Below are positions 19,433-34,476 of a stretch of 64,000 bases of DNA, piece by piece. The number at the start of each line of letters is the position of its first letter. Within the stretch, counting starts at the first letter, position 1. Under the pieces are notes generated by a model, which saw only the letters and a program-made list of their open reading frames with translations, was not told the DNA's origin and did not search any database. Origin of the DNA: an uncultured Myxococcales bacterium. GTDB taxonomy: Bacteria; Myxococcota_A; UBA9042; DTJE01. The stretch spans positions 968 to 64,967 of the forward strand of contig CAIOFV010000098.1 in NCBI GenBank assembly GCA_903857665.1. The letters run 5' to 3'. The translations under genes and the position numbers were made by a program.

Positions 19433-21478
19433 CTACGCCTTGCCCCTCAGCCACGCCTCGGCCAGCAGCAGCAGCAGCCCGACCAGGAACGGAGGCAGCA
19501 GCGGCAGGCGGCGCGTGGTCGCAGCGGCCCCGGCATCGGGCCCGGACGCTGGCGTGCGCACCAGCACCGCGGGTGGCCCTCCCCCGTGACGCAGAACGCT
19601 TTCCTCGGGGTCCGGGTTCACCACGAACGCCTCCGACCTGACCGGTTCGGGTCGTCCCTTCCGGAAGAAGTCCACGATGTAGATGCCCGGCACCGCGGTC
19701 TTTTCAAACGCCGCCGAACCGGTCAGCGTCAGGGGGGTTCCCGACGGCGGACGCACGATGGCGCCGTCGGCATCGGGGGGGAACTCGACGAAACGCGGTT
19801 CCCCCACCCGCACCGCCCCCGCGGGCCTCTGCCCACCCGCGATCCGGAGGTAGGAGAAGGCCTTTCGAACGAAGGGGGCGAAGGCCGGCAGCAGCGGCAG
19901 ATCGGTCCAGTCCCGATCCAGGCTCGACAGCCAGGTCAGGACCGTCCCCCGGCCCACGCGACGCTCGACCAGCAGGGGCACGCCTCCTTCCAGGGACGCC
20001 ACCACCGATGAACCGACGCGCCACCCGTTTTCCAGCAGCAGCAGGTGCCCGACGTGAGCCTCGGTCAACAGGTCCGCGACACCGGCGACGGCCGGATGCG
20101 AAGCGTCCACACGGGCCAGGGACTTCCCGGCGGACGCGGCCGGGTTCCCGAGGTCCAGCACCGATCGCACCGGCGCCGGCAACAGGACGCCGAGGGTTGC
20201 GCTCCAGGCCTCCGGGTCGGCGTTGGACCCCGCCGCCAGGAACAGCCCCCCGCCGGACGCCACGAAGTCGGCCAGCGCACGGGCGCGATCCGGCGACAGC
20301 GTCCCCGGGTTCAACAGTCCGACCGTGCCCACGGCGGCCAGGTGCAGCGGCGACAGTTCGTCGTCCCGGACGGTGGTCACCACGAACCCCGGGTCGTCGT
20401 TCGACCGCAGGGACAAGGCTCGCGACACGAAATAGGCCCCGCTCTCGCCGTTCCTGCGGGACGGGTCCCCATCCACCAGCAGCACCGCGTCGCGGTCCTG
20501 GGGAGCGAGGGAGAACCAGCGGACGTCATCGTCGGCGAGATCGTCGGGAGGCAGGCGGGCCTCGCCCACGCGCACCCCTTCCGGGACCTCCAGAAGGAAC
20601 TCCTCGTCGCATCGACCCCCGGAGGGGCACTCGACGCGCCGCGCGGCGGCCGTCGCGCCGGCACGCACGGACAGAACCTCGCTCATCGGCTCGGCGGCCC
20701 CGTTCGCGACGACGACGCGAACGCGGACATGCCCCGGGGACAGGTCGGGCGCAGGCGTCGCGGAAACGTCCACGACGGCCCGATTGTGCAGCGGGCCCGT
20801 CGGGGCCACGTCCACGGGGACGACCTCGATGCCGGCGAGTTCCTCGGCCGAAGGGAGGCCTGCCACCGGGTTCTCGTGAAAATCCGAGATGACGACGACC
20901 CGCCGATCCCGCTGCGGGCTCCCCCGGACACGAGCCAAGGCCGCCCTGACTGCACCGCCCAGGTCGGTCCCGGCCCGCGAGGCCGACAACCCCTCCACGT
21001 ACCGGACGGCCCGCGCCGCATCCCAGCCGGACGCATCGTCCGGAACCACGATCGCCGGCCTTGTGGCCCGGACCACGAACACCACGGATTCCGCCGGCAG
21101 TTCCTTCAGGGCCCGCAACGCGGTCTCGCGACCGCGATCCCACGACGTCCCTCCGTCGCCTGCCAGCCGCATCGACATCGAATCGTCCAGCACGATCGCG
21201 GCAGCGATCGGGCGCTCGCCGGCTCCCCCGGCAGCCGGCACGTTCAGGTAGGGGCGCGCGAACAGGAGGGCGATCCCCGCGACGATGAGCGCCCGCAACG
21301 TCAGCAGGACCACGTGCACCAGCCGCAGGCGCCGGGTCTCGCCCTTGCCGTGCAGCACGAGGTGCATGACGGCGTCCAGGGGCACGACCGGGGCGGTACG
21401 TCGGAGGTACCAGTGCAGCAGCAGCGGCACCGCCACACCCAGCAGACCCAGCAGAAGCCACGGCGACTCGAACCCCAC
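19433..21478 (-). CDS. BatA-domain / VWA membrane protein
   Basis: N-terminal BatA double TM (F.SPW.L.GL...PLLLH...LR.L......FARP), MIDAS LDDSMSM...ISD, C-terminal TM (LLLAEAWL). Confidence 0.85.
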   Translation of the reverse strand: MGFESPWLLLGLLGVAVPLLLHWYLRRTAPVVPLDAVMHLVLHGKGETRRLRLVHVVLLTLRALIVAGIALLFARPYLNVPAAGGAGERPIAAAIVLDDSMSMRLAGDGGTSWDRGRETALRALKELPAESVVFVVRATRPAIVVPDDASGWDAARAVRYVEGLSASRAGTDLGGAVRAALARVRGSPQRDRRVVVISDFHENPVAGLPSAEELAGIEVVPVDVAPTGPLHNRAVVDVSATPAPDLSPGHVRVRVVVANGAAEPMSEVLSVRAGATAAARRVECPSGGRCDEEFLLEVPEGVRVGEARLPPDDLADDDVRWFSLAPQDRDAVLLVDGDPSRRNGESGAYFVSRALSLRSNDDPGFVVTTVRDDELSPLHLAAVGTVGLLNPGTLSPDRARALADFVASGGGLFLAAGSNADPEAWSATLGVLLPAPVRSVLDLGNPAASAGKSLARVDASHPAVAGVADLLTEAHVGHLLLLENGWRVGSSVVASLEGGVPLLVERRVGRGTVLTWLSSLDRDWTDLPLLPAFAPFVRKAFSYLRIAGGQRPAGAVRVGEPRFVEFPPDADGAIVRPPSGTPLTLTGSAAFEKTAVPGIYIVDFFRKGRPEPVRSEAFVVNPDPEESVLRHGGGPPAVLVRTPASGPDAGAAATTRRLPLLPPFLVGLLLLLAEAWLRGKA

Positions 21479-21487
21479 GCCCCGCTC

Positions 21488-22396
21488 CTAGATGGTCCGC
21501 CGACGCCGGCCGGCCTCCACCGAATGGATGATTCCCGCCACCTCGACATGGGGGGTCTGCAGCATCGGCACCGGGCAATAGAACACCCTGGCATCGTGGC
21601 ACGCCGAGCGCACGGCGACTACGAACGCCTCGACCGCCTGGAGGTACTTCCGCCTCAGCGCGCGGGCGTCCAGAAGCGCGGTTTCGCCGGTCTCCTCGCT
21701 GCGGAAGACCACGGCCCCCTGGAACGGGAAGGTCCGCTCGTCCTGGGAAAGGATGTGCAGCAGCATCACCGCGTGGCCCCGGGACGCCAGCATCCCCAGG
21801 GTGTCCACCACCGGCACGAAGTCGGTCAGCAGATCGCTGGCCAGCACCACCACGCCCTTTCGCCGGGCCCGGCCCAGCACCTCCTGCATCGCCGAGTGGA
21901 GGACCGTCGCACCCGCCGGTCGGGTTCCCGAAAGGACGCCCAGGATTTCCGACAGGTGCGACGGAACGCTGCGGGCGGCGCACGAGCGCTGGCGAAGGGC
22001 CGACGCGATGGTCACCCCCACCTCGTCCCCCTGGCGCAGCAGCACGTAGGCCAGCCCGGCCAGGATCGACGCCGCGTGCAGGTATTTTCCCCCCGGCAGC
22101 GGGGATGCCATGGACCCGGAGGCGTCCAGCACCAGGTGCGCCGTCAGGTTCGTTTCGTCGAGGTAGCGCCGCACGTACAGTTTGTCCGTGCGGGCGAACA
22201 CCTTCCAGTCGATTCCGCGCGGGTCGTCCCCGAAGGCATAGCCCTTCAGGTCCGAAAATTCGAGGCTCTGGCCCAGGTGCGACGAGGCATGAACGCCCGA
22301 AACGCGCCCCTCGGCCGCGATCCCCGGCCGAAACTGGAGCCCGCCCAGGGCCGTGCGGGCCTCCTCGGGGAGCAGGCGCGAGCCGCCGTCACCCAT
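21488..22396 (-). CDS. DUF58 family VWA protein
   Basis: G.H.S...G.SLEFSD...Y..GDDPRGIDWKVFARTDKLYVRRY, LDASGSM. Confidence 0.92.
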   Translation of the reverse strand: MGDGGSRLLPEEARTALGGLQFRPGIAAEGRVSGVHASSHLGQSLEFSDLKGYAFGDDPRGIDWKVFARTDKLYVRRYLDETNLTAHLVLDASGSMASPLPGGKYLHAASILAGLAYVLLRQGDEVGVTIASALRQRSCAARSVPSHLSEILGVLSGTRPAGATVLHSAMQEVLGRARRKGVVVLASDLLTDFVPVVDTLGMLASRGHAVMLLHILSQDERTFPFQGAVVFRSEETGETALLDARALRRKYLQAVEAFVVAVRSACHDARVFYCPVPMLQTPHVEVAGIIHSVEAGRRRRTI

Positions 22397-24943: not shown

Positions 24944-25029
24944 CACGGCGCTCACTCTGAAGCCAATCGGCCTGGATTGCAAGCGAGGTCGCTATGCTAC
25001 AATTCGCCAGGCTGCCTGTCGAGGGACCC

Positions 25030-25683
25030 TTGGGACCCCGAGCCCCCACCAAGAGGAACGCGGATCGATCGAAGGGCCGCTCCCGGCCGGACGCGAAGGA
25101 TCCGACGGGGCTGGACGAGACCCTGCGGCAGCGGTACGCCCGCTTCGGCACGGCCCTGCTGTCGGACGACTCCCCGCGGCGCATGGACCCGACCCTGCGG
25201 ACCGAAATGGAAACGATCACCGGCGCGGACCTGTCGGAGGTCCGCATCCACACCGGCGGCGAGGCCCGCCAGATGGCGTCGTCGATGGGCGCGCGGGCCT
25301 TCGCGTCCGGGCCTTCCGACGTGTTCTTCGCGCGGGACCAGTTCAACCCTTCGACGCCGCAAGGCAAGTCCTTGCTGGCCCACGAGTTGACCCACGTCGC
25401 CGAGGGCGAAAGCGGGCTGGCGACCGAACCGCGACTGCCCGAACGCGACGAACTGGAGGTGCGGGCCCGCCGCGTCGAGGAGATGGTCCTCGCAAAGGAG
25501 CAGGCACCGCCGGCCGAGCCCAAGAAGGAACCGGTGGCGCTGGATCTGCTCGGCGGCCAGGTCGCGGCTCCGTCGGGCGCCGCCAAGGCGGTCCAGGTCG
25601 ACAAGGCGGCACTGGAAGAAAAGGTCTGGAAGCTGCTGGATCGCGAAATGAAGCGCCAGCGCGAGCGGACCGGGCAATCCTGA
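25030..25683 (+). CDS. DUF4157 (eCIS core domain) protein
   Basis: ME...GADLSEVRIHT...GARAFA.G.DVFF...F.P....G..LLAHELTHV. Start uncertain: ATG 24994 lies inside the TGCTACAAT -10, so TTG 25030 after GAGGGA is preferred. Confidence 0.82.
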   Translation: MGPRAPTKRNADRSKGRSRPDAKDPTGLDETLRQRYARFGTALLSDDSPRRMDPTLRTEMETITGADLSEVRIHTGGEARQMASSMGARAFASGPSDVFFARDQFNPSTPQGKSLLAHELTHVAEGESGLATEPRLPERDELEVRARRVEEMVLAKEQAPPAEPKKEPVALDLLGGQVAAPSGAAKAVQVDKAALEEKVWKLLDREMKRQRERTGQS

Positions 25684-25750
25684 ACGCCGCATTGCGCCGC
25701 GACTGCCCAGTTGCTATCTTGTGCCGCGACTTTGCGAGGCCACCGCCCCG

Positions 25751-27367
25751 ATGCTGAAGTTCCTGCTGTTTCTTGGCGGCCTGATCTTCTTCCACGAACT
25801 GGGCCACTTCCTCGCGGCACGACTGGTGGGCGTGACGGTGCTGCGGTTCTCGGTCGGGTTCGGGCCGAAACTCCTGGGGTTCAAGCGCGGCGTCACCGAG
25901 TACTGGCTGTCCGCCGTTCCGCTGGGCGGGTACGTCAAGTTCTTCGGTGACGACCCCGAAAACCCGCCCCCCGGCGAGGATGCGAAAAGGGGCTTCCTGA
26001 CCACCGACCTGTGGCGCAAGACGCTGATCGTCATCGCGGGCCCTTTGTTCAACCTGGTCCTGCCGCTGCTGATCTTCCTCCCGATGCACGCGCTGGAGCC
26101 GACCCTGCTGCCGTCGGTCATCGGGACCGTCGCCGTGGACGAGCCGGCCTGGAAGGCGGGCATCCGCCCGGGTGACCGCGTGACGGGCGTGGGCGACCGC
26201 GACATCACGTACTGGTGGGAACTGGTGGACGCCGTTTCCGCCTCGCCGGGCCAGCCGATCGAAATGCGCATCGATCGCGACGGCACCCCGAAGGCCCTGA
26301 CGGTCACACCCAAGGTGGTGGCGCTGGCGGGGTTCAAGGAACTGGGCCTGGAAAGCACGGTGGGACGCATCGAGGTTGCGCCCGAGCGGACCCTGCCGCT
26401 GGTGGTGGTCGCGAAGGGCAGCCCTGCGGAGGCCGCGGGCCTGAAGGATTTCGACGCGGTGCTGGCCGTGGACGGTCGCGATGCGCGCTCCTATGACGAC
26501 GTCGCCGCCGCGCTGGAGGCCGCCGGCGATCGGGCGGTCCGGTTGACCGTCGCGGCCACGAAGCCCGACGACTCCCGGCCCGAGGAATCGCGGCAGATCA
26601 CCCTGGGTCCCCTGGGCGCGGGCGTGCCTGCCGGGGTCCGCGAAGGCGCCCTGCAACTGGCGGCCGTCGAAGCGGGCACGCCGGCTGACCGCGCGGGCCT
26701 GAAGGCGGGCGACCGCATCGTGTCGATGGACGGCGCGACCTTCTCGGACTGGGCCTTCCTGGTCCAGGCCCTCGCGCGGGACCCGTCGCTGTCGCGCCGC
26801 CTGGAAATCGACCGGGACGGGACCGCCCTCGAAGTGACCCTGTCCCTCGCGAACCCCGCCTGGGAACCGGGCGCGGCCGTCCCGAAATATGTCCCCACCG
26901 GCGCGTCGTGCCGTCGCGCGGCCGTGGAGCCCGAGGCCATCCCGAACAACGATCGCCTGCGCTACGCCTGGCACCGGTCCTTCGACCGGACCCGCGAAAT
27001 CATGGTCGTCACCGCCGCGGGCATCGCCGGCCTGCTGACCGGCAAGGTGTCGGTCCGCGAGATGGGCGGCCCCATCATGATCTACGACATCGCGTCCTCG
27101 TCCCGCGGCGTCGAGGACTTCCTCGGGAGGCTGGCATGGCTGTCGATGAGCCTGGGCCTCCTGAACCTTCTGCCGATCCCGGTGCTGGATGGCGGCCACC
27201 TGCTGATCTTCGGGATCGAGGTCGTCCGGCGGCGGCCCGTCGGGCTTCGGGGGCGCCAGATCGCGTCGTGGTTCGGCCTCGCGTTCCTGCTGGCCCTCAT
27301 GGTCGTGGTGTTCGCCAACGATATCGAACGGAAATGGGGTGTCCTGTCGCGGTTCTCCGGGCAGTAG
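25751..27367 (+). CDS. rseP: RIP metalloprotease RseP (M50) with multiple PDZ domains
   Basis: HELGH, FSVGFGP, PLGGYVKF, AGPLFN, NLLPIPVLDGGH; three PDZ-like PA..AG...GD segments. Confidence 0.94.
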   Translation: MLKFLLFLGGLIFFHELGHFLAARLVGVTVLRFSVGFGPKLLGFKRGVTEYWLSAVPLGGYVKFFGDDPENPPPGEDAKRGFLTTDLWRKTLIVIAGPLFNLVLPLLIFLPMHALEPTLLPSVIGTVAVDEPAWKAGIRPGDRVTGVGDRDITYWWELVDAVSASPGQPIEMRIDRDGTPKALTVTPKVVALAGFKELGLESTVGRIEVAPERTLPLVVVAKGSPAEAAGLKDFDAVLAVDGRDARSYDDVAAALEAAGDRAVRLTVAATKPDDSRPEESRQITLGPLGAGVPAGVREGALQLAAVEAGTPADRAGLKAGDRIVSMDGATFSDWAFLVQALARDPSLSRRLEIDRDGTALEVTLSLANPAWEPGAAVPKYVPTGASCRRAAVEPEAIPNNDRLRYAWHRSFDRTREIMVVTAAGIAGLLTGKVSVREMGGPIMIYDIASSSRGVEDFLGRLAWLSMSLGLLNLLPIPVLDGGHLLIFGIEVVRRRPVGLRGRQIASWFGLAFLLALMVVVFANDIERKWGVLSRFSGQ

Positions 27368-27419
27368 CCCGGCTGCATCGCGCCGCGCCGACAAGGCCCG
27401 GCGACCAGGGAGCATCGGA

Positions 27420-28160
27420 ATGAAGGCGGTCGAAAGGGCCCATCCGGTCGTGCTGGCGTGCGACACATCGACCACGGTGGGTTCCGTCGCCCTCGTCGAG
27501 GGTGATCGTGTGACCGCCGAACTGGTCCTGCAGTCCCCCGGCAGCACCAGCCGACGCCTGGTGGGCGACGTGCGCGATCTTCTGGCGGCCCGCGGCCTGG
27601 CGCCCTCGGACCTCGATCTCCTGGTGGCTTCCACCGGCCCCGGTTCGTTCACCGGCGTGCGGATCACGCTGGCCGCCATGAAGGGACTGGCCTTTGCCCT
27701 CGACAAGCCCCTCGTCGGCGTCCCGTCGCTGGACGCCCTGGCCAGGCCCCTGCTGGGTCGCGGCGCGGCGATCCTGGCCGCCCTGGACGCCCGGCGCTCC
27801 GAGGTCTACGCCGCCGGGTATGCGCCCGATGGCACGCCTGTCGTCGCCCCCGCGGCCCTCTCGCCGCAGGCGGCAGCCGAGGCGTTGCGGGTCGCGTGCC
27901 CCGACCTGCCGATCCTGGGGGTCGGCGAGGGCATCCTGGCCTATCGCGACGTGCTGGTCGGCATCCTCGGGGATCGCCTGCAGATCGCCGCGGCCCCGGA
28001 GCACTCGATCCGGGCGTCGGTGCTGGTGCAGATCGCCCTGGAACGCCACCTGGCGCCGACGGACGTCGCCGCCATCGAACCGCAGTACCTGCGACGGTCG
28101 GAGGCCGAGGTCAAGAAGACGCTGGCCGACGCGGAGCGGTTGCAGGCCGGCCCCGCCTGA
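27420..28160 (+). CDS. tsaB: tRNA t6A biosynthesis protein TsaB
   Basis: LACDTST, GPGSFTGVRI, LDARRSEVY, EPQYLRRSEAE. Confidence 0.93.
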   Translation: MKAVERAHPVVLACDTSTTVGSVALVEGDRVTAELVLQSPGSTSRRLVGDVRDLLAARGLAPSDLDLLVASTGPGSFTGVRITLAAMKGLAFALDKPLVGVPSLDALARPLLGRGAAILAALDARRSEVYAAGYAPDGTPVVAPAALSPQAAAEALRVACPDLPILGVGEGILAYRDVLVGILGDRLQIAAAPEHSIRASVLVQIALERHLAPTDVAAIEPQYLRRSEAEVKKTLADAERLQAGPA

Positions 28161-28299
28161 CGCCCCCGCACGCCCTCTCCTTCCCCGCCCTCCCGATTCG
28201 GTATCCGGACCGCTCTTCTCCAGTTCTGATGCGCACGCGCCTTTCTCTGTCCCTTTTTCCCGCGCCCTTGATATCCTCCGCGCCGACAGGAGGTGCCTC

Positions 28300-30072
28300 G
28301 TGGACGGGCAACCCGCGAATCTTCCCCAGGTGGCGTCCCGATTTGCCGAGCCCGAGTTCTACGCGGCGCTCGGGCTGAAGTGCGGGATCGAGATGCACCG
28401 GCAGGTCTTCACGACCCACAAGCTGTTCTGCCGGTGCCCCGTCAAGCCGTACAGCGATGAATTCCATGCCGAAATCCTGCGCCACATGCGCCCGACGCTG
28501 TCGGAGTTGGGCGAATACGACCCGACGGCGCTGATGGAATTCAAGACGAAGAAGGAAATCGTCTACCGCCTGAACCGCGAAACGGTCTGCACCTACGAAA
28601 TGGACGACGCGCCGCCGTTCGGCCTCAACCGCGAGGCTCTGGACCGCGCGCTGGTCATCGGCATGATGCTGAACCTGAACCTCGTCGATGAGATCCACAT
28701 CGCCCGCAAGCAGTACCTGGACGGGTCGATCCCGACGGGGTTCCAGCGGACCTGCATCATCGGCATCAACGGCTGGATGAAGGTCGATGGCCGGCGCATC
28801 GGCATCCACCAACTGGGCCTGGAGGAGGACGCCTGCCGCGAGGCCTCGGACCACGGCCACCGGCGCACCTACATCACGGACCGCCTGTCGATCCCGCTGA
28901 TCGAAATCGTCACGGAAGCCGAGATGCACACGCCCGAGGACGCGGCGCGGGTTGGCAACGCCATCCGGCGCCTGTGCCACCTGTCGGGCCAGGTCCGCAC
29001 CGGCCACGGCCGCGCCCGCCAGGACGTGAACGTGTCGATCACCGGCGGCGATCGCGTCGAAATCAAGGGCGTGTCCAGCCTGCGGCAGCTGCCCGCCCTG
29101 GTCCACTTCGAGGCGCTGCGCCAGAAGGCGCTGCTGGACATCCAGGACGCCGCACGGTCCCGCGGCATCACGGCAAGCCACTTCGACACCGAGTTGGACG
29201 TCACGGCGCAGGCGAAAAGGTATCCCCACCCGGCCTTCCGGCTGCCCTGGGGGGGCGGCATCGTGGCCCGGGCCATCGTGCTGCGGAACTGTTCGGGCCT
29301 GCTGTCCTTCCCGACGGCGCCGAACCGCACGTTCGGCAACGAGATCTCGGATCGCATCAAGGTGATCGCCTGCATCGATCGCAAGCCGAACATGGCGCAC
29401 TCCGACTGCCCGCAATCGTTCACGCTGGGGGCGCTGTTCGACGAGGTGCGGCGCACCACGAAGACCGGCGCCAAGGACGCGATCGTCATCGTCGCCGGGC
29501 CGGCCGCGGACGTGACCACCGCGATGGGCGAGGTGCACATCCGCATGCGCGAGGCGCTGACCTGCGTGCCGCGCGAAACGCGCAAGTCCCTGCCGGACGG
29601 CTCGACGCTGTTCGAGCGCATGCTGCCGGGGCCTGACCGCATGTACCCGGACACGGACCTGCCGCCCATCGTGCTGGACGAGGACCGCTTCGCCCGGGCG
29701 CGCGGCAAGCAGCCCGAACCGCTGTGGGAAAAGGAGGAACGCTACAGCGCGATCGGCCTGTCGACTGTGCAGGTGGGCCGCCTGTTCACGGAAGACCAGT
29801 TCGCGACATTCGAGGCGGTCAACGGCCGCGTGTGCCTGAAACCCACCGTGCTGGCGTACCTGCTGCTGGACTGGGTGCCGTTCCTGAGGAGGCTGGGTCG
29901 CGACGTGACGGGCCTGACCGCGGAACGCTACGTCGAACTGTTCGACGGCACGAACGGGGAACCCCTGGACCAGAAGGCCGCCGCGGCACGGGTGGCTGGT
30001 GCCGTGGGCCACGCGCCGCATTTCCTGACCAAGCCCGATCCCCGGGCCGCGGAGCGGAGGGTGCAGGCATGA
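28300..30072 (+). CDS. gatE: Glu-tRNA(Gln) amidotransferase subunit E (archaeal-type GatE)
   Basis: GLKCGIEMHRQ..KLFCRCP, RPTLSELGEYD..A..E, RKQYLDGSIPTGFQRT, LEEDACR, DRLSIPLIEI, RQDVNVSI.GG.RVEIKGV, AspRS-like insert (HSD), RMYPDTDLPP; RBS AGGAGG before GTG 28300. Confidence 0.9.
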   Translation: MDGQPANLPQVASRFAEPEFYAALGLKCGIEMHRQVFTTHKLFCRCPVKPYSDEFHAEILRHMRPTLSELGEYDPTALMEFKTKKEIVYRLNRETVCTYEMDDAPPFGLNREALDRALVIGMMLNLNLVDEIHIARKQYLDGSIPTGFQRTCIIGINGWMKVDGRRIGIHQLGLEEDACREASDHGHRRTYITDRLSIPLIEIVTEAEMHTPEDAARVGNAIRRLCHLSGQVRTGHGRARQDVNVSITGGDRVEIKGVSSLRQLPALVHFEALRQKALLDIQDAARSRGITASHFDTELDVTAQAKRYPHPAFRLPWGGGIVARAIVLRNCSGLLSFPTAPNRTFGNEISDRIKVIACIDRKPNMAHSDCPQSFTLGALFDEVRRTTKTGAKDAIVIVAGPAADVTTAMGEVHIRMREALTCVPRETRKSLPDGSTLFERMLPGPDRMYPDTDLPPIVLDEDRFARARGKQPEPLWEKEERYSAIGLSTVQVGRLFTEDQFATFEAVNGRVCLKPTVLAYLLLDWVPFLRRLGRDVTGLTAERYVELFDGTNGEPLDQKAAAARVAGAVGHAPHFLTKPDPRAAERRVQA

Positions 30073-31463
30073 GCGTCAACGCGAGCGACCGCTTCAAGGG
30101 ATACCGGGGCGCCGGCCTGGAACTTCTGCAGCGCCTGGACGTGGGCGTCTGGGAGGAGATCGACGTCACGACGACGCGCGGGGAGTACCAGGGAATCCTG
30201 TTGCCCCGCAGCGAAACCGCCGGCGACCGGCACATCGTGCTGAAGCTGGATACCGGCTACAACATCGGCATCGCGGCCGACACCGTGACGTCGTTCGTCA
30301 GCCGCGGGCGCCGGGAAGCGCACTACCAGATCCCCGAACGGGAGTTCCCGTACGACCCGGTGAAGCCCACGGTGAAGCTGCTGGGCACCGGCGGCACCAT
30401 CGCGTCGCGGCTGGACTACCGGACCGGCGCGGTCATCCCGGCCTTCTCCCCGGGCGAACTGTACGGGTCGGTGCCGGAACTGGCGGACATCTGCAACATC
30501 AAGACCGAAAAGTTGTACGCGGTGTTCAGCGAGAACATGGGCCCGGAGCAGTACATCGGCCTGGCCACCGCGGTCGCGCGGTCGATCGAGGAAGGGGCCG
30601 ACGGCATCGTCATCGGGCACGGCACGGACACGATGCACCACACGGCGGCCATCCTGTCGTTCATGGTCCAGGATCCGCCCGTCCCGATCGTGATGGTCGG
30701 CAGCCAGCGGTCGTCCGACCGGCCGTCCTCCGACGCCGCGCTGAACCTGATGCACGCCACGCGCACGGCGGGCCACAGCGACATCGCCGAGGTGATGGTC
30801 TGCATGTTCGGGCCCACGTCGGACCAGTACGGCCTGCTGCACCGCGGCACCCGCGTCCGCAAGATGCATTCGTCGTTCCGCTCCACGTTCCGGACCATCG
30901 GCGACATCCCGGTCGCGACGGTTTCACGCGAAGCCGTGAAGCCCCTGCGCGAGGACTACCGACACCGCGACCCGACCCGCAAGGTCAAGCTGGACGCGGT
31001 CTACGACGACCGGGCGACCATCCTGTACTACTACCCCGGCATGAAGCCCGACCTGATCGACGGCCTGGTGGCGAACGGCTACCGCGGCATCATCATCGCA
31101 GGCACCGGCCTGGGCCACGTGAACAAGCCGCTGTACCCCGCCATCAAGCGCGCCATCGCGAAGGGCGTGCACATCTTCATGACGGTGCAGACGCTGTGGG
31201 GCTACACGCAGATGTACGTGTACGACACCGGGCGCGACCTGATGGAAATGGGGATCGTCCCGGCGGGGAACATGCTGCCCGAGGTGGCTTTCATGAAGCT
31301 GGGCTGGGCGCTGGCCCACTCGGACGACCGCGAGGAGATCCAGCGCATCATGCTGACGTCGGTGGCCGGCGAGATCACCGAGCGCGAACCGCCCGATTCC
31401 TACCTCGTGCTGCAGGGCGGCCTGCCCGAGGTCGAGGCCTTCATGAAGTCGCACCGGATGTGA
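30069..31463 (+). CDS. gatD: Glu-tRNA(Gln) amidotransferase subunit D (archaeal-type GatD)
   Basis: GatD N-domain (GILLPR...IVLKLDTGYNIG) plus asparaginase core GTGGTIASRLDYRTG, HGTDT, GSQRSSDRPSSD, RKMHS, GTGLGHV, MLPEVAFMKL; ATGA overlap with gatE. Confidence 0.92.
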   Translation: MSVNASDRFKGYRGAGLELLQRLDVGVWEEIDVTTTRGEYQGILLPRSETAGDRHIVLKLDTGYNIGIAADTVTSFVSRGRREAHYQIPEREFPYDPVKPTVKLLGTGGTIASRLDYRTGAVIPAFSPGELYGSVPELADICNIKTEKLYAVFSENMGPEQYIGLATAVARSIEEGADGIVIGHGTDTMHHTAAILSFMVQDPPVPIVMVGSQRSSDRPSSDAALNLMHATRTAGHSDIAEVMVCMFGPTSDQYGLLHRGTRVRKMHSSFRSTFRTIGDIPVATVSREAVKPLREDYRHRDPTRKVKLDAVYDDRATILYYYPGMKPDLIDGLVANGYRGIIIAGTGLGHVNKPLYPAIKRAIAKGVHIFMTVQTLWGYTQMYVYDTGRDLMEMGIVPAGNMLPEVAFMKLGWALAHSDDREEIQRIMLTSVAGEITEREPPDSYLVLQGGLPEVEAFMKSHRM

Positions 31464-31508
31464 TCGCCGGGTTCGGGGGCGGGAGCATCGACGTCCCGGG
31501 GATCGGGT

Positions 31509-32384
31509 TCAGCGGACCCCGGCGGTCGCCAGGGCGGCTTCGAGGGCTTCGCGGGTCGCCCGGCCGGCCTTCAGCAGCGGCAGGCGGACGTCGTCACGGC
31601 ACATCCCCAGCAGCGCGGCCGCAGCCTTCACGGGCGCCGGGCTGGCCTCCAGGAACAGCGCGTTGTACAGGTCCATGAGGCTGCGATCGACCTCCGCGGC
31701 TTGAGCCGCGCGCCCGGCCTTCCAGGCCTCCCACATCTCGACCATCGGCCGCGCGGCGACGTTCGATGCAACCGAAATGACCCCCTGGGCGCCCACCGCA
31801 AAGGACGGCAGGGCGAGGGCATCGTCGCCCGACAGGACCAGGAAGCCCGCCGGCACCGACGCGACGATGTCGCGCACCGGGCCTACGCTGCCCGACGCCT
31901 CCTTGACCCCGACGATGCCCGGGAGGGTCGCCAGGCACGCGACGGTCTTCGGCAGCAGGTTCACGCCGGTCCGGGACGGCACGTTGTACAGCACCACAGG
32001 CAGCCCGCCCTCGGCAGCGACGCCGCGGTAGTGCTCGATCATGCCTTCCTGCTGGGGGCGGTTGTAGTAGGGCGTCACGACCAGGGCGCCGTCCACCCCA
32101 AGGTCCCGCGCCCGCTGCGTTTCGGCGATTGTGGTGCGCGTGCAGTTCGTGCCGGTGCCGGCCAGCACCGGGATGCGTCCCGCCACGACCTCGACGACCG
32201 TGCGGATGACGGCGTCACGCTCCTCGTGGGTCATCGTCGCCGGCTCGCCGGTCGTGCCGCAGGCGACCACGCCATGGATGCCGGCCGCGATCTGCCCGGT
32301 GACCAGTTCCGCCAGCGCGTCCAGGTCCACCCGGTCCCCGTCGAACGGCGTGATCAAGGCCGTAACAATGCCCGCCAGTTTCAC
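31509..32384 (-). CDS. dapA: 4-hydroxy-tetrahydrodipicolinate synthase
   Basis: TALITPF, GTTGE, VTPYYNRP, LYNVPSRTG, GVKEASG, LSGDD; GTG start overlaps the upstream stop. Confidence 0.95.
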   Translation of the reverse strand: MKLAGIVTALITPFDGDRVDLDALAELVTGQIAAGIHGVVACGTTGEPATMTHEERDAVIRTVVEVVAGRIPVLAGTGTNCTRTTIAETQRARDLGVDGALVVTPYYNRPQQEGMIEHYRGVAAEGGLPVVLYNVPSRTGVNLLPKTVACLATLPGIVGVKEASGSVGPVRDIVASVPAGFLVLSGDDALALPSFAVGAQGVISVASNVAARPMVEMWEAWKAGRAAQAAEVDRSLMDLYNALFLEASPAPVKAAAALLGMCRDDVRLPLLKAGRATREALEAALATAGVR

Positions 32385-32941
32385 GGCTTCCTCCGCTTGG
32401 CGCATGCCTTCGTCCCATCCTCGATGGCCTTTCGAACCTCCAGCACCTGCTCGTGCTCCAGCGCATCGGCCAGGAAACTGCACGCCCGGACCTCGCCCGT
32501 TTCGCCCAGGGCGCGACCGGCGCCGGAACGCAGGATCGGATCGGGATTCGTCAGCCAGGGCAGCAGGTCGTCCACGGCCGCTTCCCGGGCCACCAGGGCC
32601 AGCGAAATCATCATCGCGGCCCGCAGCGACGACGGCTCCTCCCGGTTCGGGATCATGGACGCCAGCACCGCGCGCGAGCGTTCACCGGGGTATCCGCTGA
32701 GGGCCTTCGCCGCCCGGAAGCGCAGGTCGTCTTCGACCTTGCGGGCGACAAGGAGATCGACCAGCACGCGATCGACGTCTGCGCCGGCCACGGCCAGGTC
32801 GGCCGGCGTCGGCCGGGCCTTGCTGCGCAGGATCCGGATCACGTCCTCGACCTTCATCTGGCTGGCCGGACGTGCCGATGCCCCCCCCGCAAGGCCCACC
32901 ACCACGAGTACGGTCAGCAGGCATGCGAGGAGCCGTGTCAT
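32381..32941 (-). CDS. Secreted HEAT-repeat protein
   Basis: Signal peptide, repeated LR..A..AL helices; coupled to ffh (ATGA) and dapA (GTGA). Confidence 0.7.
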   Translation of the reverse strand: MTRLLACLLTVLVVVGLAGGASARPASQMKVEDVIRILRSKARPTPADLAVAGADVDRVLVDLLVARKVEDDLRFRAAKALSGYPGERSRAVLASMIPNREEPSSLRAAMMISLALVAREAAVDDLLPWLTNPDPILRSGAGRALGETGEVRACSFLADALEHEQVLEVRKAIEDGTKACAKRRKP

Positions 32942-34476
32942 TTCTTCTTCCGCCCCTTCTGGCGCTGCTTGCGGGCCGCCTTTTCCTTCTTGCGGCGGCG
33001 ATCCTTTTCGGCCTGCGACAGGCGGGGAACGCCGTAGCCCGGGCCCCAGCCGCCCGAAGGCCCTTCCTGGCCGGGCATCAGGTCCGACACGTCCTCGCCA
33101 CGGGACTTCGCGAGGTCCAGGGCCTCCTTGAAGCCCGGCAGCCGCGACAGCAGGGACGGCTGCTTGCCGACCCGCTTCATCACTTCCCGCATCGTGTCGA
33201 AGCGCGTCAGGAGGTCCTTGACCTCGGGCACCTTCCGCCCGGAGCCGCGCGCGATGCGCTTCATGCGGCTGTCGCTGATGATTTCGGGCTTCCGGCGCTC
33301 CTCCGGGGTCATCGAGTGGATCATCGACTCGATGCGCCCCAGGACCTTTTCGTCCACCGCGGCGCCTTCCGGCACCATGTCGTGGAAGAAGGGCAGCTTT
33401 TCCAGCGTGTCCCGCAGCGACCCCATCTTCTGGATCGCCCGGATCTGCTCGAGGAACTGGACCAGGTTGAAGTTGCCCTTCAACAGCTGGATCGCGTCCT
33501 CTTCGGCCTTTTCCTGGTCGACGACCTTCTCGAAGTCCTTGACCAGGCCGACCACGTCGCCGAAGCCCAGGATGCGGCTGGCGATGCCTTCGGGGCGGAA
33601 GGGTTCGATCTTGCTGAGGTCTTCGCCCATGCCGACGAAGACGATGGGCTTGCCGGTGACGGCGCGGACGGACAGCGCGGCGCCGCCACGGGCGTCGCCG
33701 TCCATCTTGGTCATCACCACGCCGGTCAGGGACAGGCGCTTGTCGAATTCCGACGCCATGCGGACGGCGTCCTGGCCGATCATGGCGTCCACGACCAGGA
33801 AGATGTTCTTCGGGTTCGTGCGCGCCTTGATCTGCGACAGTTCCTCCATGAGGGGCTCGTCGATGGCCAGGCGGCCGGCGGTGTCGAAGATGACCAGGTC
33901 GCGCTTTTCCGCGATGGCCTGCTTCATGGCCTCGGCGCAGAGATCTGGCGGCTGCAGCCCGGGGCGGTGGAAGACCGGGATGCCCAGGCGCTCGCCCAGC
34001 ACCTTCAACTGGTCCACGGCGGCGGGGCGGTAGATGTCGGCGGCGACCAGCATCGGCCGGTGCTTGCCTTCCTTCATCAGGCCGGCGATCTTGGCCGACG
34101 TGGTGGTCTTTCCGGTACCGTGCAAGCCGACCATCATCACGGCGGTGACCCGCCCGGCCGGCTCGAACTCGATCTGCCGCTCGCCGTCGCCCATCAACGC
34201 GATCAACTGGTCGTGGCACAGCTTGACGAAGTGCTCGGCGGGCGTGACCTGGACCTTCTTGTGGTCGGTCTTGGCCTGCAGGCGAACGACCTCGCCCACG
34301 GCCTGCGTCTTCACGTGCTCCAGGAAGGCGTTGACGACGGGCAGCGCGACGTCGGCTTCCAGCAGCGACACGCGGATGTCCCGCAGGGCCTCCTCGATCG
34401 CAGCTTCTGTGATGACCGCCTTCCCGGAGAGGCGGGCCCGGGCATTCCTGAATCCCTTCGTGAGGATCTCGAACAT
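32938..34476 (-). CDS. ffh: Signal recognition particle protein Ffh
   Basis: LLEADV, G.GKTT, DIYRPAA, DTAGR, TKMDGDARGGA, M-domain SMTPEER..P....SR..RIARGSG. Confidence 0.96.
   Translation of the reverse strand: MFEILTKGFRNARARLSGKAVITEAAIEEALRDIRVSLLEADVALPVVNAFLEHVKTQAVGEVVRLQAKTDHKKVQVTPAEHFVKLCHDQLIALMGDGERQIEFEPAGRVTAVMMVGLHGTGKTTTSAKIAGLMKEGKHRPMLVAADIYRPAAVDQLKVLGERLGIPVFHRPGLQPPDLCAEAMKQAIAEKRDLVIFDTAGRLAIDEPLMEELSQIKARTNPKNIFLVVDAMIGQDAVRMASEFDKRLSLTGVVMTKMDGDARGGAALSVRAVTGKPIVFVGMGEDLSKIEPFRPEGIASRILGFGDVVGLVKDFEKVVDQEKAEEDAIQLLKGNFNLVQFLEQIRAIQKMGSLRDTLEKLPFFHDMVPEGAAVDEKVLGRIESMIHSMTPEERRKPEIISDSRMKRIARGSGRKVPEVKDLLTRFDTMREVMKRVGKQPSLLSRLPGFKEALDLAKSRGEDVSDLMPGQEGPSGGWGPGYGVPRLSQAEKDRRRKKEKAARKQRQKGRKKK

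Follow-up and report, generated by a model that had tools for sequence, protein, structure and literature searches.

A tail-less GatDE amidotransferase operon in a Myxococcales genome that also encodes GlnRS

The stretch of DNA considered here, called the window, is 64,000 nucleotides (nt) of contig CAIOFV010000098.1 (968-64,967, forward strand) from an uncultured freshwater Myxococcales bacterium, and the coordinates below are positions in it. It carries a gatE-gatD operon that is genuine, resident and under selection. The operon encodes the two subunits of GatDE, the amidotransferase which reviews up to 2022 treat as confined to archaea and on that footing use to reason about the last universal common ancestor and about how GatDE and archaeal tRNA(Gln) evolved together (PMC9499178). 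As bacterial GatDE the pair is ordinary, being a member of a large, multi-phylum clade already labelled in databases, and its GatE, tail-less and in a family free of GatCAB, is a modest new variant. What would such an enzyme do in a bacterium that is equipped with GlnRS? The answer favoured here, at a probability of about 0.55, is that it would be an accessory Glu-tRNA(Gln) amidotransferase beside GlnRS, a stand-in for GatCAB that would pick its tRNA by the acceptor end.

Identity of the two subunits

The operon and its parts are as follows.

28288..28293, + strand: AGGAGG ribosome-binding site, 6 nt before the gatE GTG start, read from the sequence
28300..30072, + strand: gatE, kinase/amidotransferase subunit of GatDE, 590 amino acids (aa), tail-less form, GTG start (NCBIfam, Pfam, fold)
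29173..29568, + strand: AspRS-like insertion domain of GatE, residues about 292-423 (model alignment to AspRS structures)
29680..30069, + strand: C-terminal helical region of GatE, residues about 461-590, distal YqeY-like tail absent
30069..31463, + strand: gatD, asparaginase-type ammonia-producing subunit, 464 aa, ATG start (NCBIfam, Pfam)

An ATGA overlap at 30069-30072 couples the gatE stop to the gatD start, just as the first-pass annotation, a model's reading of the letters alone, had described for the two genes. With the NCBIfam models GatE scores 384.3 bits for TIGR00134 (gatE_arch; cut-off 319.55) and 453.2 bits for NF003107, narrowly below the cut-off of 456, against 65-140 bits for GatB models whose cut-offs are 315-680 (the best is 139.7 against 338). 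GatD scores 495.4 bits for TIGR02153 (gatD_arch; cut-off 324) and 501.4 for NF003217 (cut-off 310). Pfam finds GatB_N (169 bits) in GatE, and GatD_N (54 bits), Asparaginase (187 bits) and Asparaginase_C (116 bits) in GatD. The earlier claim that the pair is GatDE rather than GatB or AnsA is thus upheld by the hidden Markov models, and all of the motifs that had been quoted for it are there in the translations: SELGEYD, DGSIPTGFQRT, LEEDA, RQDVNVSI, VEIKGV and RMYPDTD in GatE; GTGGTIAS, GHGTDTM and RKMH in GatD, of which we take GTGGTIAS and GHGTDTM to be the asparaginase catalytic threonine motifs. In an alignment of 67 bacterial GatE the invariant core columns include E31, H33, the DGSIPTGFQRT block, E175/E176, N244 and K256, and these residues, the block apart, are presumably the catalytic ones of the metal and ATP site.

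The predicted fold agrees. An AlphaFold (AF2) model of GatE (mean predicted local distance difference test score, pLDDT, 84.5; predicted template-modelling score, pTM, 0.84) matches Methanothermobacter thermautotrophicus GatE, 2d6f_D, with Z 35.0 and a root-mean-square deviation of 5.5 over 510 residues, model residues 19-568 aligning to residues 1-538 of its 619, and it matches Pyrococcus abyssi GatE, 1zq1_C, with Z 32.1. Against GatB chains Z is 25-28.5 and the alignment reaches only to GatB residue about 396-403. Model residues 292-423, taken alone, match bacterial AspRS insertion domains (Z 12.1, 117-118 residues, deviation 2.4-2.6).

A GatE without its tail

The match of the NCBIfam profile to GatE stops at position 525 of 622, and PF02637 (GatB_Yqey) has no match in GatE or anywhere in the genome assembly. 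With tail length measured as the number of residues that follow the conserved RMYPDTD motif, the window GatE has 144, its 11 family relatives have 128-145 and two metagenome-assembled genomes (MAGs) labelled Anaeromyxobacteraceae have 139 and 142. The figure for all other complete bacterial GatE is 181-219, a range that leaves out three short open reading frames (ORFs) running off contig ends, and for canonical Thermoplasmatota GatE it is 200-224. Since gatD begins at the gatE stop there is no hidden tail exon. The model retains the helical domain and lacks the distal YqeY-like part of about 60 residues; with the tail absent and the helical part present, the protein is classed as a tail-less GatE variant and not as a typical member. 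The description of the operon as an intact archaeal-type GatDE therefore stands for both subunits and for the catalytic core, and fails for the C-terminus of GatE.

When did the tail go? In a maximum likelihood tree of 73 GatE sequences (LG+G4, rooted on ten canonical Thermoplasmatota GatE, with Shimodaira-Hasegawa-like approximate likelihood ratio, SH-aLRT, values only) the 14 tail-less sequences are one clade, with support 100 and a stem of 0.57 changes per column, which is sister to a long-tailed Myxococcales MAG. This grouping points to a single loss at the base of the family. According to PMC2330236, the YqeY-like extension of GatB and GatE contacts the tRNA D-loop, and GatDE and GatCAB both reject tRNA(Glu) by D-loop features.

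Could the missing part be supplied from elsewhere in the genome? GlnRS was considered and set aside, as its C-terminal domain is PF01588 tRNA_bind and not YqeY. Supply in trans was likewise dropped: the genome has a free-standing YqeY gene, and nothing ties it to gatE. Free-standing YqeY genes are common in bacteria. The GlnRS domain is of some interest in itself. It is Trbp111/EMAP-like and lies at residues 635-730 of the open frame (G000:C165:22141-23736; L006:1024-3222, minus strand), and as many GlnRS open frames in the phylum are 730-850 aa, a C-terminal extension may be widespread. The GlnRS of Deinococcus reportedly carries a different appended domain, YqeY.

Distribution and origin of bacterial GatDE

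A protein search with GatE returned 8000 scored relatives. Among the matches listed the closest are of 560-590 aa, the named ones being MAGs labelled Myxococcota or Deltaproteobacteria, and the next are of 635-655 aa and 52-56% identity, labelled Krumholzibacteriota, Terriglobales and Zixibacteria, many of them named GatE. That name is already given to bacterial relatives in NCBI and JGI records. A scan of one genome per species confirmed at least 593 genome stretches that encode GatE relatives, and 78 of the best 80 of these carry a bacterial label, from many phyla. The impression of rarity conveyed by the first-pass annotation is consequently not sustained. It had also remarked that a well-characterised bacterial clade would lower the novelty; the clade is indeed large and annotated, and no characterisation of it was found in print, in a full-text literature search that had most subscription journals and supplements outside it. 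In the phylum sample GatE is over cut-off in 33 of 201 genomes, among them all 12 of the window's family. Of 80 loci drawn from many phyla 71 contain gatD as well as gatE, and the window GatD is 63-75% identical to that of other bacterial phyla and collinear with it over the full length.

All 53 bacterial GatE rows of the tree form one clade (SH-aLRT 98), and the sequences nearest to it are divergent GatE of Thermoplasmatota genomes. The two divergent copies that were checked are on archaeal contigs, one with aIF-2, S3ae and TYW1 and the other with glycerol-1-phosphate dehydrogenase. An ancient transfer of the gene from archaea to bacteria would account for this; as the archaeal rows come from one phylum, Thermoplasmatota, and the root is assumed, donor and direction are provisional. 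The old horizontal acquisition proposed earlier is in keeping with the phylogeny to that extent.

Two of the Thermoplasmatota genomes, G258 (L109, L114) and G280 (L115, L116), have two GatE each, one canonical and one divergent, and it is the divergent one, with no gatD adjoining, that is closer to the bacterial clade. A further genome, G229 (L061), is labelled Thermoplasmatales and has a bacterial-type gatE, placed next to the bacterial clade, together with a 743-bit GlnRS (C16:8878-10452) and a GluRS of archaeal type; either the bin is mixed or this is an archaeon that has GlnRS, for which there would be no precedent.

Aminoacylation inventory and the alternation with GatCAB

The assembly (5.04 Mb, 173 contigs, 93% complete) encodes GlnRS (699.6 bits), AsnRS (478 bits), one GluRS and one AspRS, both of bacterial type, and four AsnB-type hits, of which three are full length and pass the cut-off. 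In this 93% of the genome there is no GatB besides GatE itself and no GatA over cut-off, the best hit being 226 bits against 481. With all of the direct synthetases present, GatDE is redundant on paper, and Gln-tRNA(Gln) can be reached without it. That this bacterium owes its route to that molecule to GatDE, as had been suggested, is accordingly not supported, GlnRS being in any case the norm in the phylum (170 of 201 genomes). Does the genome's tRNA(Gln) resemble that of archaea? Both the CUG and the UUG species are U1-A72 (the former with G73, the latter with A73), and tRNA(Glu) and tRNA(Asp) are both G1-C72. It had been argued from the pair at 1-72 that either the tRNA or the enzyme should have adapted, and with a bacterial U1-A72 in both tRNA(Gln) it must be the enzyme. 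ARAGORN lists 53 tRNA genes in the assembly, including tRNA-SeC(TCA) and an odd tRNA-Cys(ACA); it lists none for tRNA(Asn), tRNA(Ile) or tRNA(Trp).

Coexistence with GlnRS is the rule among the relatives too. GlnRS is in 29 of the 33 phylum-sample genomes with GatE and in 141 of the 168 without, and its being about as frequent in either set led to the idea of a special link between GlnRS and GatDE being discarded. The two genes adjoin in two genomes only (G011:C180:3522-7449, divergent; G165:C8:414316-418775, same strand). Leaving out the window genome, the phylum sample has 32 genomes with GatE: 28 encode GlnRS, 14 encode GatB, and the four that have no GlnRS all encode GatB. Three of these four, G005 (L173/L174), G036 (L168/L169) and G048 (L166/L167), have two GluRS each, and the fourth, G114, has one. 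The second GluRS of the three has Glu at the position of Thermus thermophilus Arg358, a feature reminiscent of Helicobacter pylori GluRS2, which is specific for tRNA(Gln) (PMC2978374). Of the genomes behind the 80 diverse loci 50 were checked, and 45 have GlnRS and 21 GatB; neither was found in two bacterial MAGs of unknown completeness and one archaeon. Taken together, 80 of the 82 bacterial GatE-bearing genomes checked have GlnRS and/or GatB, and 76 of 80 genomes examined for AsnRS have it.

Within the class of the window, 38 genomes with its own included, 14 have GatE only, 17 GatB only, three both and four neither, so that exactly one type of amidotransferase is found in 31 of the 34 that have any. 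Since these genomes are related to one another, the exclusion is to be taken as a pattern and not as a statistical test. The pattern hints that GatDE performs here the task which GatCAB has in sister families with GlnRS and AsnRS.

Is tRNA(Gln) ever mischarged by the single GluRS? Replacement of Arg358 by Gln makes the T. thermophilus GluRS non-discriminating (PMC2978374). The GluRS of the window genome has Arg at that position, which was tried as a sign of discrimination and found uninformative: in a control of 13 phylum genomes with GatCAB and no GlnRS, two of which, with 12 other rows, were unreadable, all 11 readable obligate mischargers also have Arg.

The locus, its residency and selection on it

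The genes around the operon are plainly bacterial by Pfam, as had been claimed for the RseP, TsaB-like, DapA and Ffh genes.

25721..27367, + strand: rseP-like site-2 protease gene, upstream (Peptidase_M50 and PDZ)
27339..28160, + strand: tsaB-like gene, directly upstream, 273 aa, start codon uncertain (TsaD, 74.3 bits)
31509..32483, - strand: dapA, convergent with gatD (DHDPS, 308 bits)
32938..34476, - strand: ffh, bacterial SRP54 (SRP54_N, SRP54, SRP_SPB)

The name tsaB for the TsaD-family protein at 27339..28160 is our reading. No promoter or terminator was found in a scan of 27900-31700, and no tRNA gene was found in the window. Further upstream there is a 229-aa ORF with Pfam eCIS_core (89.6 bits) just before rseP (24994-25683, + strand), and a gene for a BatA/VWA-domain protein adjoins one for a DUF58 protein (19433-22396, - strand) in an arrangement like that of aerotolerance (bat) operons. 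Across 95 loci no third gene is conserved with gatE and gatD, no family being in more than 10 once ORFs overlapping gatE or gatD are put aside. Glutamine synthetase (Gln-synt_N and Gln-synt_C) is directly upstream of gatE in six of the 95 (L017, L019, L022, L047, L061 and L082; for example L022:4516-5940). None of 60 related loci has a tRNA(Gln) gene, and their only gene for either tRNA(Glu) or tRNA(Gln) is a tRNA-Glu(CUC) in one MAG, some 200 bases upstream from gatE (L050:5723-5799).

Might the operon be an archaeal fragment fused to bacterial DNA in assembly or binning? Nothing was found in favour of this, and its probability is negligible. The GC content of gatE-gatD is 0.66-0.70 where that of the flanks is 0.67-0.73, so there is no compositional island, and the codon style matches that of the flanks in the manner first described from the letters. 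The rseP and tsaB ORF families are upstream of gatE in eight other assemblies of the same family, and the dapA and ffh families downstream of gatD in five. Logan contigs from lake and freshwater metagenomes (four runs, three studies) cover the gatE-gatD region, with single contigs spanning tsaB-gatE (27323-28556), the gatE/gatD overlap (29968-30566) and gatD-dapA (30526-31653; 31425-31653). The best-covered runs may include the window's source sample; runs X5 and X6 are of other studies, and X6 covers both junctions (27323-28556; 30526-31653 and 31425-31653). No RNA data set was listed among those that contain the region. The chimera that had been named as a way for the claim to fail is thus absent.

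A decaying relic, on its way out after GlnRS took over and with the truncated tail as the first sign, is a notion of another kind, and a very improbable one. The truncation itself speaks for it, as does the faster change of the last 90 residues of GatE (ratio of nonsynonymous to synonymous substitution rates, dN/dS, 0.39-0.80, against 0.17-0.33 for the whole gene). However, neither frame is broken in any of the 12 family genomes sampled, at GatE identities of 54-89%, and within the genus dN/dS is well under 1 for both genes (gatE 0.17-0.22; gatD 0.06-0.11). The lower conservation of the C-terminus is, moreover, equally seen in long-tailed and in tail-less pairs, the identity ratio between core and C-terminus being 0.59-0.81 and 0.56-0.82, respectively (12 pairs, of which 3 are long-form). 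Relaxed selection special to the tail remnant was therefore rejected, with the small number of long-form pairs in mind, and the faster C-terminus is not read as decay. Purifying selection continues on the catalytic parts of GatE.

What is the enzyme for?

In the accessory role favoured here GatD would release ammonia from glutamine or asparagine, and GatE would phosphorylate the side-chain carboxyl of the glutamate on tRNA(Gln) and then amidate it to glutamine, the chemistry of both steps being that of archaeal GatDE. The pair would be an accessory route next to GlnRS and would fill the slot that GatCAB has in sister families. As the tail that reaches the D-loop is lost, the choice of tRNA would have to rest on the acceptor end, where U1-A72 in tRNA(Gln) would be told from G1-C72 in tRNA(Glu) and tRNA(Asp). 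Several things weigh against this. No reported activity of any bacterial GatDE was found in the literature. GlnRS, AsnRS and AsnB are present, so that on paper no amidotransferase is needed. The lost tail has been described as taking part in tRNA binding in GatB and GatE, and an enzyme deprived of it may bind poorly or differently. The absence of tRNA(Asn) from the assembly makes its 1-72 pair unreadable, and the comparison at GluRS position 358 says nothing on mischarging of tRNA(Gln) by the single GluRS. At 93% completeness gatCAB could be on the missing DNA, but 10 of the 11 family relatives are likewise without GatB.

Instead the substrate may have changed or widened, to Asp-tRNA(Asn) or to Asp-tRNA(Asn) together with Glu-tRNA(Gln), with GatDE taking over the tRNA-dependent synthesis of asparagine from GatCAB. 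That synthesis has been proposed for GatCAB, which is why the idea was kept, and it is reported to go on beside GlnRS and AsnRS in Bdellovibrio, Thermus and Deinococcus (PMC4206432). The single type of amidotransferase in 31 of 34 class genomes favours it, as does the near-constant presence of GlnRS (170 of 201) and AsnRS (76 of 80) in these genomes, and since bacterial tRNA(Asn) is also U1-A72 it would be met by an enzyme that reads that pair. The same source from which the last point comes, PMC2330236, has archaeal GatDE as specific for Glu-tRNA(Gln). The genome's four AsnB-type genes, three of which are complete and score over cut-off, make tRNA-dependent asparagine unneeded on paper; both enzymes are kept in three class genomes and in 14 of 32 in the phylum; and no sequence change has been shown to alter the amino-acid pocket. 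A changed or wider substrate range is, on balance, unlikely. Repurposing is also improbable in our estimation. Here the GatDE core would serve a non-ribosomal use of Glu-tRNA, or act on a carboxylate that is not on tRNA at all, and contact with the tRNA elbow would have been dropped for that. Redundancy with the direct routes (GlnRS, AsnRS, AsnB) speaks for it, the tail was lost on a long stem (0.57 changes per column), and a GatD that is 63-75% identical across phyla implies an important role even beside GlnRS. Yet no third gene accompanies the pair in more than 10 of 95 loci, the cradle for the CCA end and catalysis is kept along with the AspRS-like insertion, and redundancy with GlnRS is no less marked in the long-tailed relatives and hence does not track tail loss.

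A more specific history can be put forward with reserve, and is doubtful as it stands: that GatDE replaced GatCAB as the family's only tRNA-dependent amidotransferase and shed the tail that reads the D-loop, and that bacterial GatDE is kept beside GlnRS and AsnRS for the synthesis of amide amino acids or for clearing mischarged tRNA. If true, this would be a role that textbooks do not give GatDE. Whatever the role, the bacterial clade contradicts the archaea-only premise of the reviews. Its members coexist with GlnRS and AsnRS and alternate with GatCAB between sister families, and the tail-less family indicates that a GatDE deprived of the tail regarded as necessary for tRNA binding can function or, failing that, can still be maintained by selection. 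The purpose of tRNA-dependent amidotransferases in bacteria that have the direct synthetases becomes testable. The weight of the single locus is moderate, as it is one more member of a large clade.

Comparison with known systems

The archaeal GatDE of known structure, from M. thermautotrophicus (2D6F) and P. abyssi (1ZQ1), have the same two subunits and the same order of domains in GatD, and their GatE has the cradle, AspRS-like insertion and helical domain of the window GatE, which their sequences match with E-values of 6e-82 (2D6F) and 5e-86 (1ZQ1). The window GatE is 34-37% identical to the solved archaeal ones and is without about 60 of their C-terminal residues; its genome's tRNA(Gln) is U1-A72 where that of archaea is A1-U72. 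Archaeal GatDE is the sole route to Gln-tRNA(Gln) in the absence of GlnRS, which is not the situation in the window genome: its host is a bacterium with GlnRS, whereas no archaeon with GlnRS is reported (PMC9499178).

Bacterial GatCAB, for which GatDE looks like a substitute, occupies the same place in the genome inventories of the class, with one or the other per genome as the usual state. Its GatB, a paralogue of GatE, shares the catalytic cradle and the helical domain with GatE (the model's Z of 25-28.5) and is without the AspRS-like insertion that GatE has. Its ammonia comes from the amidase GatA, whereas GatDE uses the asparaginase-type GatD and has no GatC.

A third known system is the long-tailed bacterial GatDE clade, with labels from Myxococcota, Krumholzibacteriota, Aminicenantes, Phycisphaerae, Ignavibacteria, Fermentibacteria, Calditrichota and others. 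It has the same gatE-gatD order and a GatD that is 63-75% identical, and its members mostly have GlnRS (45 of 50). The difference is in GatE, which in that clade continues for 181-219 residues after RMYPDTD, in some cases with Pfam GatB_Yqey, and in the window's family for 128-145.

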